Shown piece after piece: positions 11,335-29,505 of a stretch of 64,000 bases of DNA (positions are counted from its first letter, which is position 1; every line of letters starts with the position of its first letter). Made by a program: the position numbers and the translations under genes. Location: positions 16,814-80,813 of the forward strand of contig JBGTEY010000013.1 in assembly GCA_041747555.1 (NCBI GenBank), written 5' to 3'. The stretch is from Patescibacteria group bacterium (GTDB taxonomy: Bacteria; Patescibacteriota; Microgenomatia; UBA1400; PJMF01). The notes below the pieces were generated by a model. It was not told the origin of the DNA and ran no database searches. It worked only from the letters and a program-made list of their open reading frames with translations.

Positions 11335-12444
11335 ATGCAACAAAAATCACACCTACTTGTCAGGGCCATGAAACATTTTTTTAGAGTATTCCTGAGTGTT
11401 AACGCCGTAATTATTGGTATATTTTCTAGTTTGGCAGTGATTGGAATTATGTCAGCGATGGTTTCTGATGACACAGCCGTTTCTGGCACGAGCTCAATTT
11501 CAGAAGACTATCGTGTCTTGGTTGGTGAAGACGATGCCGAACATCAATTTGCGTCAATTGCACTTGATGGAATTATTTTAGGTGACAGAAGTGAATTTGA
11601 GCAGATTTTTGAGGCATTTGCCTCTGGTGGAGTCACCTTTGGGTATGATGTCAAAGATGAGCTCTATGAACTCGCCGATGCCGATGAAGTCGCAGGAATT
11701 GTCTTAGAAATCAATTCTCCCGGAGGAACAATCTTTGGCACCCAAGCAATTGTTGATGGCGTTACCTATTATCGACAACAGACCAACAAACCTGTGGTTG
11801 CATATATAGGCAGCATTGCCGCATCTGGTGGATACTGGGCTGCGGTGAGTGCTGATGAGATTATTGCTGATGCTGGTACAACCATTGGTAGCATCGGTGT
11901 CATTACTGGACCTATTAAATTTTATGACGGCGTGGTGAGTGAGGATGGCGGCGCATTTATTGGAGGAATCGAAACCACCGGTGGCGTCCAGACAACATTT
12001 TTCACCGCAGGAGAGGGTAAAGATATGGGTAATCCCTACCGACCAATGACCGATCGTGAGCGACAAGTCTTGCAAGGGGCTGTAGATAGTAGTCATAGCA
12101 CGTTTGTCGATTATGTTTCAGAGCGTCGCGCTGTTGATCGAGCGACCGTTACCCAAATGTGGGGTGGATATATTTATAACGACATTCAAGCTACCCAACT
12201 AGGAATGGTTGATAACCGAGGCTCAAAGGATGCCGCCTACAACATCGTTGCAGAGCGTGCAGGTGTTGCTATCGATGACTCCTCCATCATTAGATACAGA
12301 TCAGGTGGTGGATTTTTTGATCAGTTATTTGGTGTGGTGAGTGATGCGCAGACTGAGCTTAAGGCTGGGCGCGTGTCTGGTGGGTGTTTGTATAGCCAAC
12401 ATGTGATGGCGTATCACGGGGATTTGGCTGGGTTGTGTTTTTAG
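11335..12444 (+). CDS. sppA: Signal peptide peptidase SppA (S49 family, 36K type)
   Basis: EINSPGGTIFG and GSIAASGGYWAAVSADEIIADAGTTIGSIGV match the SppA Ser/Lys dyad region. N-terminal TM anchor. Confidence 0.7.
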   Translation: MQQKSHLLVRAMKHFFRVFLSVNAVIIGIFSSLAVIGIMSAMVSDDTAVSGTSSISEDYRVLVGEDDAEHQFASIALDGIILGDRSEFEQIFEAFASGGVTFGYDVKDELYELADADEVAGIVLEINSPGGTIFGTQAIVDGVTYYRQQTNKPVVAYIGSIAASGGYWAAVSADEIIADAGTTIGSIGVITGPIKFYDGVVSEDGGAFIGGIETTGGVQTTFFTAGEGKDMGNPYRPMTDRERQVLQGAVDSSHSTFVDYVSERRAVDRATVTQMWGGYIYNDIQATQLGMVDNRGSKDAAYNIVAERAGVAIDDSSIIRYRSGGGFFDQLFGVVSDAQTELKAGRVSGGCLYSQHVMAYHGDLAGLCF

Positions 12445-12475: not shown

Positions 12476-12898
12476 ATGATAGAACAAAATGAGCCATCAC
12501 CCAAAGAAGAAAACGGTGAACATCCACTAAAACTTGATGAATTTCAAGGTCTTTTAGATGTTTGGAAAAAGAGTAAAGAGGCAGGAGCTCGGGCCGTATC
12601 AGATTTTCTAGATGAACTAGATGATGCGCTTAAAGAAGTGCATGAGCAAGGTAGGCAATACCTGATAATGGGAACAATAATCAGTACGGCATCGAATTTA
12701 ATGTTTCCTAATCTCATGACCTCAGACTCTAGCTTTGCTACAGTGGCGATGTGGCTGGGGCTCAATGTGGTTGGTTCAGCTGTCGCACTAAAGATTAAAA
12801 ATAAAATAACTCAAGAAATAGCGAGGTACAAAGAAGAAGTTGCTTCGGGCCGAAGTTTTGATTCTACACATCAATATCAATCTGAGGATGAAGTATGA
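12476..12898 (+). CDS. Hypothetical protein
   Basis: ORF with one hydrophobic segment. Translationally coupled (ATGA overlap) to the next ORF. Confidence 0.3.
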   Translation: MIEQNEPSPKEENGEHPLKLDEFQGLLDVWKKSKEAGARAVSDFLDELDDALKEVHEQGRQYLIMGTIISTASNLMFPNLMTSDSSFATVAMWLGLNVVGSAVALKIKNKITQEIARYKEEVASGRSFDSTHQYQSEDEV

Positions 12899-13284
12899 CT
12901 GATCCAATTAAGGAACTATCCAATCTGGAGCATGTAGTCCTCGGTCCCTTACTCATCGCAACTGGCATGAGTGATGATGAGCAAGTCATTGTCAAAAAAC
13001 AGTTATTGCTCGTTATAGTGGCTCAATCAATCCAAAAGGTGGAGCAAGCTCTTTCAGAAGAAGAGAAAGAATCACTTCTCAACGAGTTATCTCAACTGGA
13101 TCCACAAAGTCAATTGGATCACCTTGCGAGCTTTATTTCCCAGAACGAAATTTCTCAACAGCTTTTATCTGAGTATTATCAAAAAGACTTACCCCAACTA
13201 CTAAAACGCTTACTGCTAAAATTCATGAATAGCGCCACCGATGAACAAAAACAGAGATTTCTTAAAGCTTCAGAGGCTGTTTAA
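12895..13284 (+). CDS. Hypothetical acidic helical protein
   Basis: ORF only. Coupled to the upstream ORF. Confidence 0.3.
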   Translation: MTDPIKELSNLEHVVLGPLLIATGMSDDEQVIVKKQLLLVIVAQSIQKVEQALSEEEKESLLNELSQLDPQSQLDHLASFISQNEISQQLLSEYYQKDLPQLLKRLLLKFMNSATDEQKQRFLKASEAV

Positions 13285-13285
13285 G

Positions 13286-14188
13286 CTAAATAATTTTGTG
13301 CTTAGTAAGAAGTTTGAAAATAGAAACAGTCCTCTGCGCAAATTCCTCATCCTCCAGAGGTACCGACCATAATTTATCCAAAAAAGAACTTCGTTGATAC
13401 TCGATGACCACGTATCTTAGTTTGCTATTGAGTACTGATGCAAGCTCACTCCACATGTCTTCGGTTATCATTTCGACTGGCAAAGAATCATGACTGTTGG
13501 TGCCAAGCGAAATATGGACAATGCACGGGCCAAGTGCGTCTAATTTTTGCAGCATTTCATGCCAGTGTTTGGATGGATTGATCAATGAATTTGGTTTTTC
13601 TAGTAAGTAGTGTACGATGTCAAAAACGGGAACGCACGGGATGCCTGCTTTTGTCAGTGTTTCGACTGCTTCACGGGTAACTTCATATGATTCTTCGAAT
13701 GGATTATTTTCTATTGCGAGTGGGCAGGGCAGGGCAGTGGGCAACTGATTGTTCTGAAAAACTGATCGTGCTTCTGTTTCGTGAATAAGAAAATAATGCG
13801 GTTTGCTATCTTGAGCAAGTGACAATCTTTGTAATGCTTTGGGCGTTGATTGCAAAAGTATGGTAAAGCCAATTGTGAGCAATCGAATAGGATTGAACCA
13901 AGAAAGATCGGGATCAATGCCAGTTCTACCGTGAAATCCGGCTACGGGGACAGCGTCTGAACTGCCAAGCTCATCCCATGGAGCGACAAATCTCCAGAGG
14001 AGGACTTCTATACCTGGCATCTGACTCTTTTCTCTTCCCTCGCCAACTTCTTTAAAAATGTATTGCCAAAATTCTCGTGCATCGTACCAATCGCCAAAAA
14101 CTCCCACCACATCGGTGGAAATACCCGATCCGTAGCTATTTTTGAGTGCTGTTATAAATTGTTCCGGATTAAAGTTGGTAGGAGGCAT
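13286..14188 (-). CDS. Hypothetical protein
   Basis: 300-aa ORF with no recognisable motif by eye. Confidence 0.3.
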   Translation of the reverse strand: MPPTNFNPEQFITALKNSYGSGISTDVVGVFGDWYDAREFWQYIFKEVGEGREKSQMPGIEVLLWRFVAPWDELGSSDAVPVAGFHGRTGIDPDLSWFNPIRLLTIGFTILLQSTPKALQRLSLAQDSKPHYFLIHETEARSVFQNNQLPTALPCPLAIENNPFEESYEVTREAVETLTKAGIPCVPVFDIVHYLLEKPNSLINPSKHWHEMLQKLDALGPCIVHISLGTNSHDSLPVEMITEDMWSELASVLNSKLRYVVIEYQRSSFLDKLWSVPLEDEEFAQRTVSIFKLLTKHKII

Positions 14189-14285
14189 AGCTGTATTTTT
14201 AAAAAAAATGACCTGTGTGTAAGCGATTTGTAGGATTTAAAAGGTATTGTAGCAAAAGTAACAGATAATAAAGAAAGGAGACAAG

Positions 14286-14855
14286 ATGTATAGCAAGAAA
14301 AAACTGCTTATCTCTGGTCTTTTTGTACTTCTGCTCGGGCTGACCCTTGGGGCAGGTGCAGTAGTCGCGTATTTTTCTAGTGTCGGTCAGACGGATTTCA
14401 ATACAATTCAAACAGGACGGCTTGACATGCTGGTTGGTCAAACAGATGCACTCCAAGAAGAGCATTGGCTGCCTGGTGAGTCACAAATCATTGAGTGGTC
14501 AGTACTCAATACGGGCAATATAGATTCATATCTCAAGGGAAAACTCGATGTAACCTGGGATGTAGAAGGTCTCGAGACAGAAAAAATTATCATAGATTCA
14601 GTCGAATATATGGATGCTGGTGTGTGGTATCCACTCACGAGTGGCACAATTTCACCCGGTGATGAATTTTTATACAGTGCAGATGGCACAGAAGGTGGTC
14701 TAATCTCATTCCCTCAGGCGAAAGAAGTGCTATTTAGAATGACCGTCACGCTCGATCCCACGGTGGAAAATGAGTATCAAAATGCAGGATTCTCTGGTCA
14801 AGTAAAAATGGCTGGCAGACAACAAACAGAGGGAGCTGTGTGGGGAAGTTTATAG
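14286..14855 (+). CDS. TasA/camelysin-family secreted protein with SipW-cognate-class signal peptide
   Basis: N-terminus MYSKKKLL...LGAGAVVAYFSSVGQTDFNTIQTGRLDM parallels B. cereus CalY/TasA MSLKKKLG...GGGTFAFFSDKEVSNNTFAAGTLDL. Middle LPGESQIIEWSVLNTGNIDS resembles LKPGDSVKKEFLLQNSGSL. C-terminal ...FSGQVKMAGRQ resembles ...LNLEWTFNANQ. Confidence 0.6.
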   Translation: MYSKKKLLISGLFVLLLGLTLGAGAVVAYFSSVGQTDFNTIQTGRLDMLVGQTDALQEEHWLPGESQIIEWSVLNTGNIDSYLKGKLDVTWDVEGLETEKIIIDSVEYMDAGVWYPLTSGTISPGDEFLYSADGTEGGLISFPQAKEVLFRMTVTLDPTVENEYQNAGFSGQVKMAGRQQTEGAVWGSL

Positions 14856-15646
14856 GAATAAGTATTTGTATGGGGCTGTTGATGTTTCACTCAGCAGCCC
14901 CTGCCAGAGCCTTTTTCACAACCATTGGTGAATTTACTCATCACTTTACTATCATTGAGTCAACAATTGTGTCAGTAGAAGCACCGTTTGAAAAAGAAAT
15001 TACTTCAATAAAACCAGACCAGTCTCTTTCACTCTGCTATCAATTCATCAGCGAAAGTGACGACCCTGGATTTGATGAACCAGCTATGACTGTGAAACTA
15101 TCAGAAAAAATCATATATGAGACAAGTTTTTCTGCAGATAAAAAATGTATTCAAATGCAGCTCGATCAAGGATACAACGTAATTCAAATATCGGTGCATG
15201 ACACCATAGATACTCAAAATTCACCTCAGGTGGTACTTTCAGATTTTGAGGTTAGCGCAACCGCTGCGTTGCCTTCACAGATGCTTCTAGTTTTTGATAG
15301 TATCGTGGAGCAAATCACCAGAAGTGATGACTCGACACTAGTAAGTTTTAAACTTGCGGTGCCTATGGATTCTGAATTAGTTGACATCAGTACTAATTAC
15401 TCACTGGCACTCTATGAGATAACATCATCGATTTCAGATGAAACAATCATTACCACAAACGTTCCAATTGGATTGAACATTTCGGCAGAGCCAGATCATC
15501 CTGTATTAATTTCCCCACACCAACCACTCTGGAATACATTTTTAGGCCAAAAATTTGTTGATAGTCGATTTCCAAATCATAGTATTAGTTTTGTGACTGC
15601 TCGAATTCCTCATGGTCACTGGTTTGCTCAAATTCATGAGGAATAA
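14840..15646 (+). CDS. Secreted hypothetical protein, possible second SipW-type substrate or minor subunit
   Basis: Signal peptide followed by ARAFFTTIGEFTHHF (resembles the A-Y-F-S-D...F motif). Overlaps the TasA-like gene by 16 nt. Confidence 0.35.
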   Translation: MGKFIGISICMGLLMFHSAAPARAFFTTIGEFTHHFTIIESTIVSVEAPFEKEITSIKPDQSLSLCYQFISESDDPGFDEPAMTVKLSEKIIYETSFSADKKCIQMQLDQGYNVIQISVHDTIDTQNSPQVVLSDFEVSATAALPSQMLLVFDSIVEQITRSDDSTLVSFKLAVPMDSELVDISTNYSLALYEITSSISDETIITTNVPIGLNISAEPDHPVLISPHQPLWNTFLGQKFVDSRFPNHSISFVTARIPHGHWFAQIHEE

Positions 15647-15791
15647 ACAATTCTCAGCTAGCTAACCCTTGAGTTTACTAGGGTTTGTAGTGCATACTTG
15701 GGACTACATGAAATTATTTGAAACGATCGCGCATCTCTTCCACCCTCGTCGGTCGAATAATCATCGACCCAAAGTCCTGCACCCAGAGGCA

Positions 15792-16760
15792 ATGGCATAC
15801 ATGGTTGGAATAATCGTCGCACTTTCATTTTTTATTCAATTTGCGCCGAGGCAAAACGCACTTTCAAACGTCTTGGGCTACTCATCAGATATAACGGTCG
15901 ATAAAGTGCTGTCTCAAACCAACCAAATCAGAGGACAAGGCAGCCTCAAGTCGTTGCAGTACAGTGATCGATTATCACAAGCAGCGGTCGCCAAAGGTCA
16001 AGACATGTTTGCCAATCAATACTGGGCACACACATCCCCTTCTGGCAGAGAACCATGGGATTTTATTCGCGCTGTTGGATATGGTTATCGAGTTGCGGGT
16101 GAAAATTTAGCTCGAGATTTTGACACCACAGATACCATGATGCAGGCATGGATGGCGTCACCAACGCACCGTGAAAACATCATGCACCCAAGATACCAAG
16201 AAATAGGTATCGCAGTCATCGACGGAACACTCAATGGAGTCGAAACTACACTGGTCGTGCAAATGTTTGGCCTCCCCATAACTACTCAAGTAGCTGAGGT
16301 TCCAGACAGTAACGTCTTTGGTGTTAACCAAGCTCAAGCTGCAGAACCAAGCGAATTCGAGCCAGCAGATCAGGTGGTGATCACTGAAGCAAATTCAGCA
16401 CGGGAAGTTGTTCCAGATGAAGCTGCTGGAAATGAACAACCACAGGCCAGCACCATCCCAGATCCTGAACCAACACTGAGCCCAACATCAGGCGACTCCA
16501 ATCTAGCGACACCAGTAGAACCCCTCATTGCAAGGCCCAGGCACTCTCTGGGAATCTTCCCACAGTTTTCTCCCCTCATGCTCACTAAAGCTGGAGTTAT
16601 TGCAGTCACTTTACTACTCCTTGGAACACTACTATATGATGCTATGATCATTGCTAATAGAAAAACAGAGCGATTTGTGGGTAAAAATTTAGCACATATT
16701 ATCTTGTTTTCCATGGTTTTATTTCTGCTAATTGTTATTAAGGGAGGAGCGATAGCATAA
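15792..16760 (+). CDS. CAP/SCP/PR-1 domain secreted protein with Pro/Glu-rich linker and C-terminal TM anchor
   Basis: YWAHTSPSG...GENLARDF...MQAWMASPTHRENIMHPRYQEIGIAV are the CAP-domain signature blocks. The C-terminal hydrophobic stretch is IAVTLLLLGTLLY. ATG at 15792 is preferred over the TTG at 15669. Confidence 0.6.
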   Translation: MAYMVGIIVALSFFIQFAPRQNALSNVLGYSSDITVDKVLSQTNQIRGQGSLKSLQYSDRLSQAAVAKGQDMFANQYWAHTSPSGREPWDFIRAVGYGYRVAGENLARDFDTTDTMMQAWMASPTHRENIMHPRYQEIGIAVIDGTLNGVETTLVVQMFGLPITTQVAEVPDSNVFGVNQAQAAEPSEFEPADQVVITEANSAREVVPDEAAGNEQPQASTIPDPEPTLSPTSGDSNLATPVEPLIARPRHSLGIFPQFSPLMLTKAGVIAVTLLLLGTLLYDAMIIANRKTERFVGKNLAHIILFSMVLFLLIVIKGGAIA

Positions 16761-17020
16761 TGATCAGAGGAGAACTCAAACGACATCCAGTTGCATATGG
16801 TGCGCTATTTTTGGGCTTGGGGATTTTCGTGTACGGTTTTCTTGGGGCATGGCCAGACCGTTTCACTCAGCGAATTTTGATCATGGGACTTGTTACATTT
16901 TATTTCATTTGGGGTGTGGCAACGCACGTTTCTGCCAAGCATCTTACCTCAAGAATTGTTGGAGAATATTTAGCTGTAGCACTGCTGGCAGGAGCATTAC
17001 TATTAGCTGTGACACTTTGA
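16760..17020 (+). CDS. Small membrane protein (2-3 TM)
   Basis: 86-aa hydrophobic ORF, start overlapping the upstream stop. Confidence 0.3.
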   Translation: MIRGELKRHPVAYGALFLGLGIFVYGFLGAWPDRFTQRILIMGLVTFYFIWGVATHVSAKHLTSRIVGEYLAVALLAGALLLAVTL

Positions 17021-26129: not shown

Positions 26130-27767
26130 TTACTGGTTCTGCTGCTCTATGATTGTAGTAGAGAGCTTGAGTAAATTTTCTCGAGTATTTTGATCTGGAT
26201 CATTGAGTACTACTTGCAACAATTCTGTAAGAATAGTGCCGAGTATCGGGCCAGGTTTGAGTGAAAATTCTTCCATCAAATCGGTTCCATTTATAGCTAA
26301 ATCAGTCACCTCCATTGGCTGATGGAGCTGCTCAATCATGCGTTGCTTCATTTCTTCGAGGCGCCAGCTTGTCTTACGGGCACCACTGCCCAAACGGTCA
26401 GCCTCTCTGACATCAAGAATATCATCCAAGTGTTCCAGCCCAACATTGCGCATAAAACGTCGAATAGACGCATCAGAGTTTTGCTCTTGGTAATGGAACA
26501 TATGAAACCGCACTAAGATAAAAAGACGATCGATGTCTTTCTTTGATAATTTCAGCCGTTGCCCAATTTTTTTGGCAATTCTGGCACCGATCACTTCGTG
26601 ATTGTAGAAGGTAGGCTGACCATTAATGAGCTTCATGGTTTGAGGTTTGGCAATATCATGAATCAGTGTTGCCAGCCGAACAATTGGATCAGTTGCAGGA
26701 GACGCTTCAAGTGCATCGAGACTATGCGTCCAGACGTCTGTGGTGTGATGACCACCTTGTTCGACGTTTTTTGCTTCTAGGAGCTCTGGCAAAACGGTTT
26801 GTAAGAGACCCGTTTCGTCAAGGAGCTCAATTGCTCGCTTTGGTTGCTTGCTCGATATCATTTTCAAAAACTCGGTGCTTATCCGTTCCCAACTAACAAA
26901 TGAGAGGAGATCTGCCTTTTTCTTAATAGCTTGCACCGTGTCTTGATCTATCGTTGCTTCAAGTTGAACAGCGAAACGAATTGCCCTGAGCAGGCGGAGT
27001 GCATCCTCGGTAAAACGGTCCTCGGCAATCCCGACTGTTTTCACAAGCTTGTTTTGTAAATCGGTATAACCATTAAAAGGATCAATAATGGTGTAATCGC
27101 TTGATGAGAGTGTACTATTCAGCTGAGTATCAAGGACTGTGCTGGTCTTTTTGGTTTCTAGTGCGGTCGAAAGTACATCAGAGGATAGTTGAATTGCCAT
27201 GGCGTTGATAGTGAAATCTCTACGTTCAAGGTCATCTTCGATATTTTCTCCCCAGCTCACTTGATCAGGCTTGCGGTGATTCTGATACGCTCCGTCAGAG
27301 CGAAAGGTAGTGATTTCAAAATTTTTAAGTTTAGAAAGAACTTTAGACGCTTTTTGGTCATCAGAAATCACTTCTTGCTGTAGCGATACATGAATTTTTG
27401 TTGCAGCTGAAATATCAATTATGCGATTTTCTCGATTTGTGTCATTTGGGAGGAGCCGTTCTGCCATCTCAAGGTCATCAAGTTTGTGCGGTAGTACTTT
27501 CCAAATTTCGGGTGGAGTTATCATCACTGTTCCATACTCATTTTCATAAAAACTTTCTGGAAACACTTTAAGAATTTGCTCAGGAGTAGCATTTGTAGTG
27601 AAGTCAAAATCAACAATGTGATCACGCCCCTGCAATAGATCACGCACCGCTCCACCCACAAGGTAGCACTCATACCCTGCAGCGTCCAGTTGTTTCATGA
27701 TATATACAACCTCAATTGGAATAGGAAGGCTGGTTGGAGGAGTAGTCGGTGAATCCATAGCCTTCAT
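26130..27767 (-). CDS. cca: CCA tRNA nucleotidyltransferase/poly(A) polymerase family protein with HD domain
   Basis: LVGGAVRDLLQGRDHIVDFDFTT is the head-domain motif. HHTTDVWTHSL and IHDIAKP are HD motifs. The start is trimmed to the ATG at 27767, because the track ORF runs into recJ. Confidence 0.7.
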   Translation of the reverse strand: MKAMDSPTTPPTSLPIPIEVVYIMKQLDAAGYECYLVGGAVRDLLQGRDHIVDFDFTTNATPEQILKVFPESFYENEYGTVMITPPEIWKVLPHKLDDLEMAERLLPNDTNRENRIIDISAATKIHVSLQQEVISDDQKASKVLSKLKNFEITTFRSDGAYQNHRKPDQVSWGENIEDDLERRDFTINAMAIQLSSDVLSTALETKKTSTVLDTQLNSTLSSSDYTIIDPFNGYTDLQNKLVKTVGIAEDRFTEDALRLLRAIRFAVQLEATIDQDTVQAIKKKADLLSFVSWERISTEFLKMISSKQPKRAIELLDETGLLQTVLPELLEAKNVEQGGHHTTDVWTHSLDALEASPATDPIVRLATLIHDIAKPQTMKLINGQPTFYNHEVIGARIAKKIGQRLKLSKKDIDRLFILVRFHMFHYQEQNSDASIRRFMRNVGLEHLDDILDVREADRLGSGARKTSWRLEEMKQRMIEQLHQPMEVTDLAINGTDLMEEFSLKPGPILGTILTELLQVVLNDPDQNTRENLLKLSTTIIEQQNQ

Positions 27768-27789
27768 TATACTGCATTTTGTTGCTACA

Positions 27790-29505
27790 ATGACTGCCAT
27801 GCGCTGGCAGATACAAACATCACACATTCCAAAAAATTTAGACGAGCTCAAAGAAATTTTACTTGCAAATCGAAACATTTCAGAGAGCGATGATTTTTTC
27901 TCGCCTCCTGATCCATTTACTATAACCGCCGAAGAAATTGGATGTAACAAGAAGCAACTCCAGAGCGCGCTGGACAGATTTTTTGTTGCGTTAGAAAAAA
28001 AGCAAGACATCGTGATTTTTGGGGATTATGACGCAGATGGAATTTGTGCTTCTGCAGTGTTATGGCATGTCCTCACTACTCTCAAGGCAACAGTGCGGCC
28101 GTTCATCCCACAGCGTGAGGTTCATGGATATGGCCTCAGCATTCCAGCACTAGAAGAAATAATCACCGAAAAAAAACCAGATCTTATCATCACTGTCGAC
28201 AACGGCATTGTGGCACACGAAGCAGTTGATTTTGCTCGTGAAAATAACGTCGATATCATCATCACCGACCACCATCAGCCAGAAGAAAAAGCAAAAAAAG
28301 AGCATTTACCAAAAGCCAACGCAGTTGTTCACACCACGGCACTCTGTGGAACAACCGTAGCCTGGATGTTTGCTCGTGAAATCATTGCCGCACATAAAAA
28401 AACAGGCCCCGCAGGTGTGCAAAAAAATGCTGAACGAATTCTAAAAGACACCCTCGATCTCTGCGGAATTGCCACCGTAGCCGACCAAGTGCCACTGCTC
28501 GGGTACAACAGGGGTTTCGCTACTGCAGGTATCGCAGCTTTACAAAAAAGCGCTCGCCCCGGCATTAGAGCCCTCTGTGCTCAAGCAAATATTGATCAAG
28601 CGGCAATCACCAGTGACTCAATCGGATTTGGAATTGCTCCCCGAATCAACGCCATGGGTAGGCTTGCACACGGACTTGACGCACTGCGATTGCTCTGTAC
28701 GGGAAACTTTACCAAAGCTACCGAATACGCGCAGGTGCTTGGCAACAAAAATGACCAGCGAAAAGACATGACTGCAGAAATGTTTGCCCACGCCATGCAA
28801 CAAGCTAAGTTGCAAGCGGAAGAGCATGTACTCATTGTTGGCTCTGCTGAATATCATGAAGGAATAATTGGATTGATAGCAGGGAGATTGAGCGAGCGGT
28901 TTTCTAAACCAGCAATCGTGGTAAGTTTTGGCAAAACAGTGGCTAAAGCATCGGCCCGGTCAGTCATTGGAGTGAATATTGTTGAGTTTATTCGAGAAGT
29001 ACAGGCTGATTTGCTTGCAGTTGGCGGGCATCCAATGGCTGCGGGGTTTGGGTTGGCGATGGATAATTTTGAGAAAGTTCAAAAAAAACTCTTTGAGCTT
29101 GGACGCGAAACAATTGGATCTGAGCTACTAACGCCTGGGCTAGAAATTGACTGTGAGATCCCGTGGCAGCTTGTCACAGAAAAACTAGTAACTTTGCAAG
29201 AAGCATTTGCACCATTTGGTTCAGCAAATCCGCGTCCCGTATTCATCCTCACGTGCGAAGTCCAATCCACCAAACGCATTGGCGCAGAAGGCAAGCATCT
29301 CAAATTATTTCTCGGTGAATCAGACGAAACTGGTATGACAAATTCTCTAGAAGCATTAGCCTGGAATAGAGGTGAGTGGGCAGAATCATTAGAGGAGGGA
29401 CAAAAGGTTCGGGTTGCGGTTAAAGTTGAGTTAAATACATGGCAAGGTCGGTCAAAAGTTCAGTTGGTTATCCGCGATATGCAGAATCCTGAAGAAGCAC
29501 CGTAA
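27790..29505 (+). CDS. recJ: Single-stranded-DNA-specific exonuclease RecJ (DHH family)
   Basis: IFGDYDADGICA, IITDHHQP and GGHPMAAG are DHH/DHHA1 motifs. Start set at MTAMRWQ. Confidence 0.85.
   Translation: MTAMRWQIQTSHIPKNLDELKEILLANRNISESDDFFSPPDPFTITAEEIGCNKKQLQSALDRFFVALEKKQDIVIFGDYDADGICASAVLWHVLTTLKATVRPFIPQREVHGYGLSIPALEEIITEKKPDLIITVDNGIVAHEAVDFARENNVDIIITDHHQPEEKAKKEHLPKANAVVHTTALCGTTVAWMFAREIIAAHKKTGPAGVQKNAERILKDTLDLCGIATVADQVPLLGYNRGFATAGIAALQKSARPGIRALCAQANIDQAAITSDSIGFGIAPRINAMGRLAHGLDALRLLCTGNFTKATEYAQVLGNKNDQRKDMTAEMFAHAMQQAKLQAEEHVLIVGSAEYHEGIIGLIAGRLSERFSKPAIVVSFGKTVAKASARSVIGVNIVEFIREVQADLLAVGGHPMAAGFGLAMDNFEKVQKKLFELGRETIGSELLTPGLEIDCEIPWQLVTEKLVTLQEAFAPFGSANPRPVFILTCEVQSTKRIGAEGKHLKLFLGESDETGMTNSLEALAWNRGEWAESLEEGQKVRVAVKVELNTWQGRSKVQLVIRDMQNPEEAP

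Follow-up and report, generated by a model that had tools for sequence, protein, structure and literature searches.

A putative minimal TasA-type fibre module in a Patescibacteria genome and the SipW-type signal peptidase of its relatives

The TasA/camelysin family is best introduced through the tapA-sipW-tasA genes of Bacillus subtilis (structures 5OF1 and 8AUR). The donor strand of TasA comprises residues 28-38, and the N-terminus of TapA resembles this strand and nucleates fibres (PMC9674648). TasA is a poor substrate of LepB-type signal peptidases, which cope poorly with an aromatic residue at P2'; TasA carries Phe at P2' and Trp at P2, and the block has been traced mainly to the P2 Trp (PMC10269814). 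In the archaeon Pyrobaculum calidifontis, the TasA-fold pilin AbpA (PDB 7UEG) is likewise followed by a secreted accessory protein proposed as first donor strand, the TapA-like AbpB, which is encoded directly 3' of abpA at a locus without a dedicated signal peptidase (PMC9245690). CalY and TasA of Bacillus cereus, processed by SipW, and BsaA of Clostridium perfringens are also SipW-dependent matrix subunits of the family. BsaA reportedly carries isopeptide cross-links and is said to be secreted in a type IV pilus-linked manner. Members once described as camelysins are now regarded as fibre subunits. Here we describe a locus at positions 14286-16760 of a 64,000-nucleotide stretch of a Patescibacteria genome (Microgenomates/Pacebacteria-like; contig JBGTEY010000013.1, hereafter the window), in which an open reading frame (ORF) for a TasA/camelysin-family protein, ORF1, overlaps a second ORF for a secreted protein, ORF2, and is followed by a gene for a CAP-domain protein, ORF3. 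We hypothesize that ORF1 and ORF2 form a minimal fibre module of the TasA type.

A first-pass annotation made from the sequence by eye had placed these three ORFs and assigned ORF1 to the TasA/camelysin family, with a signal peptide of the type recognised by SipW. The ORFs lie where it had put them (Table 1), and both assignments are borne out by profile searches. Every motif that had been listed is present in ORF1, namely KKK, a hydrophobic stretch, AYFS...N.I.TGRLD, WLPGESQIIEWSVLNTGN and FSGQVKMAGRQQ. The two hidden Markov models (HMMs) that had been proposed as a check both exceeded their curated cut-offs: PF12389 (Peptidase_M73) scored 25.7 bits against a gathering threshold of 22.5 (E 1.2e-5, residues 5-81), and TIGR04088 (cognate_SipW) scored 23.6 bits against a cut-off of 19 over residues 14-46. 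Exhaustive HMMER searches placed ORF1 in a family of 213 clusters at 50% identity (E<1e-3), 66 of them at E<1e-10, nearly all of 180-195 aa and matched over their full length. This yield was far larger than that of a word-indexed search with ORF1, which returned 3 and then 8 proteins; an alignment search for TasA-like proteins in species-representative genomes found nothing. PF12389 was matched by 43 of 60 aligned relatives (best E 1.6e-19). A profile of these 60 sequences retrieved the TasA structures 5of1 (E 9e-6) and 8aur (E 1.1e-5) through the N-terminal block and a C-terminal N.YQ...F..A.Q motif, as well as archaeal AbpX (E 1.4e-3). The family profile was required for this result, as a single-sequence phmmer search of the PDB with ORF1 gave no match. 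Whereas AbpA was recognised as a relative of TasA only by profile-profile and structural comparison, ORF1 passes the Pfam model directly.

Structural prediction pointed in the same direction. The AlphaFold2 (AF2) model of ORF1, built from the family alignment, had a predicted local distance difference test score (pLDDT) of 93.3 and consisted of a helix (residues 3-31), an unstructured segment (32-47) and a beta-sandwich. Foldseek ranked the TasA fibre first (E 2.5e-7) and the Pyrobaculum bundling pilus AbpA second (E 1.5e-4), with further donor-strand pilins lower in the list, and the modelled fold is the jelly-roll/beta-sandwich characteristic of TasA. The proportions of nonsynonymous and synonymous differences (pN/pS) between ORF1 and its counterparts in two related contigs (0.116/0.71 against L001 and 0.239/0.698 against L002; loci collected for comparison carry L numbers throughout) indicate strong purifying selection. 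The name camelysin could suggest a metalloprotease, a reading that was rejected for ORF1 as the HExxH motif is absent. We consider membership of ORF1 in the TasA family to be close to certain, and this classification as a recognisable member stands irrespective of what any fibre may signify. The annotation had further called a TasA-like system in Patescibacteria unusual, a view that could not be upheld: the phylum is already among those listed with PF12389 homologues (Wang et al. 2022, PMC9245690), an orthologue 79% identical to ORF1 bears the NCBI name 'TasA family protein [Microgenomates group bacterium]', and the TasA-like family occurs in more than 20 Patescibacteria genomes.

The same alignment of 60 relatives helps to position the signal peptide. 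Ala28 is invariant, and Tyr29 and Phe30 are nearly so; cleavage would fall at A28|Y29, a site homologous to A27|A28 of TasA (...TWA|AFND...). The free N-terminus left by such cleavage, YFSSVGQTDFNTIQTGRLD, would be the counterpart of the TasA donor strand. Conservation in the mature N-terminus extends well past the cleavage site (...N.F.TG.L), in the segment that is unstructured in the monomer model. These two features are indirect, partly model-based indications that ORF1 may polymerise by N-terminal donor-strand exchange. With about 161 residues, the predicted mature protein is some 70 residues shorter than TasA (234 aa) and is without the TasA C-terminal tail. As a separate observation, a TasA-like domain also occurs at the N-terminus of three much longer proteins, P0029 (587 aa), P0030 (697 aa) and P0063 (698 aa), one of which carries the NCBI name 'TasA family protein [bacterium]'; they may be fused subunit-adhesin forms.

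ORF2 begins at a GTG codon within ORF1, in an overlap of 16 nt as originally noted. One automated gene call instead placed the start at ATG 14870; the overlapping start was accepted because the overlap and an initial MGK(F/L) are kept in both L001 (GTG) and L002 (ATG). The Shine-Dalgarno sequence within the end of ORF1 suggests translational coupling of ORF2. A signal peptide is predicted at residues 1-24 (...PARA|FF), and the mature protein would start with FFTTIGE, in line with the similarity to ORF1 (YFSSVGQ) that had been seen by eye near the signal peptide. Twenty ORF2 orthologues, 268-420 aa in length, were collected by synteny, each directly 3' of a TasA-like gene or of sipW. All 20 show a signal peptide followed by [AS]|[FY][FY], often with ...N.F..GEW. 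When the two families were compared with hhalign, the only similarity detected was between residues 18-42 of ORF2 and residues 22-46 of ORF1 (E 2.2e-5, probability 76%). Across 19 genomes the N-termini of the two proteins were more alike within a genome than after shuffling, the observed score being reached in 0.2-0.4% of 20,000 shuffles, and this co-variation persisted when the first two residues were left out.

Beyond its N-terminus ORF2 is a protein of a different kind. It matched no Pfam, NCBIfam or PDB sequence, and the idea that it is a TasA paralogue was rejected, as a BLASTP comparison of the two showed weak similarity (E 0.25) confined to the signal region. Judged by its sequence, ORF2 is a predicted secreted protein encoded beside a tasA-like gene, with a mature N-terminus resembling a donor strand; it thereby resembles TapA as described in B. 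subtilis and, in its placement, archaeal AbpB. Five longer orthologues carry an OmpL47/Ig-like domain, which the window copy is without. Two further loci deserve mention in their own right. At L023:4953-6163 two overlapping ORFs of 223 and 198 aa appear to represent one broken ORF2 orthologue, owing to a frameshift or an assembly error or because the gene is a pseudogene. At L020:8630-9913 (contig JACKFW010000001, 1.08 Mb) a distant ORF2-like gene lies 5' of the CAP gene and is without the A|FF motif after its signal peptide; a TasA-like gene and sipW are both absent within 10 kb, and this gene may be what remained once the fibre subunit had been lost.

The enzyme that would process ORF1 and ORF2 was sought in the window and in related loci. 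As the annotation had stated, no SipW gene is found in the 64 kb: the S-x-S-M-x-P motif is absent from all six frames, and tblastn with two related SipW proteins gave a best E of 2.6. Sixty-six Patescibacteria loci were then considered, fetched through the conserved CAP neighbour and scanned with local HMMs. The gene order TasA-like, SipW, ORF2, CAP is found in 11 genomes (L009, L011, L012, L016, L018, L021-L025 and L036), and the window shares the SipW-less order TasA-like, ORF2, CAP with about 9 others. The model TIGR02228, which describes signal peptidase I of the archaeal/SipW type (cut-off 51.85 bits), was run on two of the peptidases and identified both, a 147-aa protein encoded between the TasA-like gene and ORF2 in L009 (87.7 bits) and a 217-aa protein encoded after the TasA-like gene in L010 (90.1 bits). 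In an alignment of 13 peptidases the Ser and His motif residues, the Gly and Asn of GDAN and the following Asp are all invariant; the exceptions are confined to L024 and L025, where the Asp of GDAN is Leu and H-R is H-Q, and L016, where the Ala of GDAN is Tyr. A search with 13 Patescibacteria SipW sequences returned 7273 matches at E<1e-8, several of those listed being named from Patescibacteria, Parcubacteria and Berkelbacteria, and by this measure SipW/archaeal-type peptidases are very common in Patescibacteria. The annotation had treated the processing enzyme as unknown, which is too pessimistic: the expected class is clear from the 11 clusters that encode a SipW-type peptidase between their orthologues of ORF1 and ORF2, and in the present genome such an enzyme would be encoded outside the window.

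Unbootstrapped neighbor-joining trees of the CAP and TasA-like proteins divide the clusters without sipW into three clades, including that of the window, which suggests repeated loss or relocation of sipW. These clusters span a deep divergence (23-47% identity), their ORF1 and ORF2 genes are intact, and the cleavage motif A|[YF]F[ST]...N.F.TG.L is kept equally with and without sipW. The P2 position of the TasA-like protein, compared across loci L001-L044, differs between the two groups. It is hydrophobic (V/F/Y/I/M/L) in every cluster without sipW, including Val27 of ORF1 (14364-14366). Of the 12 loci that have sipW next to the TasA-like gene, 11 show a polar or charged residue or Gly (T/K/G/R/S) at P2, and L010 shows Tyr. 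ORF2 orthologues show no such split. The P2 pattern may have arisen as the substrates adapted to another signal peptidase, or from common descent within some five clades.

Two peptidase loci with other arrangements were also seen. L010:9947-17436 (GCA_964579845.1) encodes, in this order, a TasA-like protein, SipW, a protein with an LTD domain and a HemolysinCabind protein of 346 aa, itself a weak match to the TasA-like HMM (1.7e-9), followed by repeat-rich secreted proteins and a sortase. On the minus strand of L061:94-1504, from a Saccharibacteria metagenome-assembled genome, short ORFs with weak matches to the TasA-like HMM (2e-7 and 1.8e-4) lie on either side of a gene for a SipW-type peptidase, an arrangement suggestive of a more diverged form of the module in Saccharibacteria.

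Set beside the B. subtilis genes, the locus has in common a PF12389-family protein with a TIGR04088 signal peptide and a beta-sandwich preceded by a donor-strand-homologous N-terminus, a second secreted protein whose mature N-terminus appears to mimic the donor strand and, in related Patescibacteria, a SipW-type gene between the two secreted-protein genes. It differs in gene order, which is reversed (tasA-like, (sipW), ORF2 here versus tapA, sipW, tasA in Bacillus), in the absence of sipW from this cluster and window, and in ORF2, for which no likeness to TapA was detected beyond the first 25 or so residues. The host is a reduced-genome member of the Patescibacteria rather than a Firmicute. 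The P. calidifontis locus is alike in being without a dedicated signal peptidase; the archaeal Abp operon, in contrast, encodes several multi-pass membrane proteins, of which the ORF1/ORF2 cluster shows none.

We propose that ORF1 and ORF2 would together make up a minimal extracellular fibre module of the TasA type. Both proteins would be exported by Sec, and their signal peptides would be cut before the aromatic pair (A28|YF in ORF1 and A24|FF in ORF2) by a signal peptidase of the SipW/archaeal type, the gene for which would no longer lie within the cluster in this lineage. The freed N-terminal strand of ORF1 would enter the beta-sandwich of the next subunit by donor-strand exchange, giving rise to a fibre. 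ORF2, presumably made in smaller amounts from its overlapping GTG start, may act like TapA or AbpB, as its N-terminal strand resembles that of ORF1 while the rest of the protein is unrelated; it would supply the first donor strand and nucleate or cap the fibre, and may also anchor it or act as an adhesin. We put the probability of donor-strand fibres made of ORF1, with ORF2 starting or tipping them and a peptidase encoded elsewhere processing the proteins, at roughly 0.55.

Several observations weigh against this proposal. The PF12389 match to ORF1 is restricted to the N-terminal 40% of the model, and ORF1 falls outside the BsaA subfamily, whose model TIGR04090 is its top NCBIfam match by E-value (2e-6) but gave 27.7 bits where the cut-off is 60. 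TIGR04088 was not matched at E 0.1 by any single ORF2 orthologue, the single-sequence AF2 model of ORF2 had a pLDDT of 35.6 and was discarded, and ORF2 is fast-evolving, with weaker selection than ORF1 (pN/pS 0.415/0.65 against L001). The failure to find a signal peptidase gene in the window counts on the same side, a SipW-type enzyme in this organism being an assumption of the proposal. We know of no fibre seen for any TasA homologue of Patescibacteria. One competing explanation is that ORF1 is a secreted or surface protein of the TasA fold that does not polymerise, with a matrix, coat or camelysin-like role, and that ORF2 is unrelated and shares with it the peptidase recognition motif only. 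The case for polymerisation consists of homology and fold, the mature protein is shorter than TasA and without the tail (TasA residues 239-261) that contacts other subunits, and the likeness of ORF2 is confined to about 25 residues that overlap the region recognised by the peptidase. Conservation beyond the cleavage site together with disorder in the monomer is nevertheless what a donor strand would be expected to show, all structurally characterised close relatives (TasA, AbpA and AbpX) form donor-strand filaments, and the N-terminal co-variation of the two proteins inside each genome holds even with the two residues next to the cut disregarded. We regard a non-polymerising ORF1 with an unrelated ORF2 as unlikely.

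A different explanation, and the main rival, accepts the fibre and is compatible with it: in clusters without sipW a housekeeping signal peptidase would make the cut, and a dedicated SipW would be unnecessary. The three separate clades with both genes intact would fit this, as would the archaeal Abp operons, which manage without a dedicated peptidase (PMC9245690). The LepB block in TasA was traced mainly to the P2 Trp (PMC10269814), a position at which ORF1 has Val, and the difference in P2 between clusters with and without sipW hints at adaptation to another enzyme. The housekeeping enzyme may itself be SipW/archaeal-type, given the abundance of such peptidases in the phylum. Phe at P2', disfavoured by LepB-type enzymes, is however kept in all clusters without sipW, and the P2 pattern, drawn from only some five clades, might be due to phylogenetic inertia. 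We consider cleavage by a housekeeping enzyme to be possible rather than probable. That the module is instead decaying after loss of sipW, with ORF1 tethered by an uncleaved signal-anchor or non-functional, seems highly improbable. The absence of sipW from the cluster and the surrounding 64 kb and an ORF2 that is fast-evolving and, in this clade, shorter than most relatives (268 versus 340-420 aa) would agree with decay, but ORF1 is under strong purifying selection, the overlap and the ORF2 start are conserved in three genomes with the cleavage motif intact, and clusters without sipW have persisted over deep divergence.

In terms of novelty, a protein of the ORF1 type is already known, being named by PGAP and belonging to a family reported in the phylum; modestly new are the accessory ORF2 family and the pattern of clusters with and without SipW. 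A literature search combining TasA, SipW or pili with Patescibacteria or the Candidate Phyla Radiation found no paper with a description of the operon, of the ORF2 family or of the SipW polymorphism. Those Patescibacteria that have been cultivated grow attached to other microbes. To our knowledge, only type IV pili have so far been tied to this attachment by experiment. If the fibre proposal is correct, it would add a second and much simpler filament, needing a single small subunit, an initiator and a peptidase, as a candidate means of binding hosts or forming aggregates for lineages that are not yet cultivable. More speculatively, and with a good deal less confidence than in the fibre itself, a clade of Patescibacteria may use a minimal donor-strand fibre, built from a subunit of about 161 aa and the undescribed ORF2 family, as a surface filament other than a type IV pilus to attach to hosts or to each other, and the repeated loss of sipW with its shift at P2 may mark a move to a differently encoded peptidase, possibly a housekeeping enzyme of the archaeal/endoplasmic reticulum type. 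The family also supplies very small TasA-type subunits of about 161 residues, and its natural variants with and without SipW could help to work out why certain signal peptides depend on SipW.

Table 1. Positions of the features at and near the TasA-like locus, numbered from the first nucleotide of the window
Feature	Position	Strand	Remarks
SppA-type signal-peptide peptidase (S49)	11335-12444	+	PF01343 8.9e-33
Shine-Dalgarno AAGGAG	14275-14280	+	5 nt before ORF1 ATG, from sequence
ORF1, TasA/camelysin-family protein, predicted major fibre subunit	14286-14855	+	189 aa, mature ~161 aa
ORF1 signal peptide, residues 1-28	14286-14369	+	KKK n-region, hydrophobic core, GAGAVVA c-region
ORF1 mature N-terminus, residues 29-47 (YFSSVGQTDFNTIQTGRLD), predicted donor strand	14370-14426	+	Coil in monomer model; aligns to TasA donor-strand region
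Shine-Dalgarno AGGGAG inside ORF1 3' end	14830-14835	+	4 nt before ORF2 GTG, from sequence
ORF2, secreted protein of unannotated family, predicted TapA-like initiator/tip	14840-15646	+	268 aa, GTG start
ORF3, CAP/YkwD-domain membrane protein	15669-16760	+	363 aa; transmembrane (TM) segments 40-60, 300-323 and 336-363, CAP 82-198 (predicted)
Membrane protein with three TM segments, partner of CAP gene	16760-17020	+	86 aa; after CAP in most loci

The three ORFs are co-directional and are followed by the gene for the 86-aa protein and then by one for an RmlA-like nucleotidyltransferase. ORF3 is a CAP/YkwD-domain protein, as had been proposed (PF00188, 62.7 bits against a threshold of 21.1, E 7.3e-17; three predicted TM segments), with a TIGR02909 score of 104.9, below the cut-off of 171. 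It is separated from ORF2 by 22 nt and is probably co-transcribed with ORF1 and ORF2. Its presence next to them was thus correctly described, but the implied membership in the same module was rejected: the CAP gene, usually with the 86-aa gene, occurs independently across Patescibacteria, in Saccharibacteria, WWE3 and others, with TasA-like and ORF2 genes absent within 10 kb. On the other side, sppA lies directly 5' of the TasA-like gene in L014, L016, L019, L024 and L025 and abuts the CAP gene directly in L028, where the module is absent. Because the CAP pair occurs without TasA-like and ORF2 genes and sppA can abut CAP, the genes for the TasA-like protein, SipW where present and ORF2 behave as a separate module of two or three genes, located between sppA and the CAP pair in one clade. 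Scans for promoters and terminators gave counts not above those of shuffled sequence and were uninformative.

Between sppA and ORF1 the window holds three genes without family assignment (300, 140 and 129 aa; 13286-14188 on the minus strand and 12476-13284). The 129-aa and 300-aa genes also occur in L001, a gene of about 306 aa is found in L007, and the 140-aa gene was matched only in L003, which is a copy of the window; in other syntenic genomes the three are absent and sppA abuts the module. An ORF of 602 aa at 27697-29505 may be RecJ-like, judged by eye. The ORF3-type CAP proteins share a near-invariant cytoplasmic N-terminal motif, HLFHP(R/Q)RSNNHR(P/S)KLLH (window 15669-17020; near position 10000 in L011-L075), and show a weak NCBIfam match to the divisome-associated lipoprotein DalA. 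The CAP and 86-aa pair is found in very diverse Patescibacteria, often with glycosyltransferase genes after it. Genes for RRF, an M50 (RseP-like) protease, a DUF3048 protein and SecDF lie a few kb 3' of the module, in the same order in many genomes, and constitute together with sppA a conserved secretion and envelope neighbourhood.

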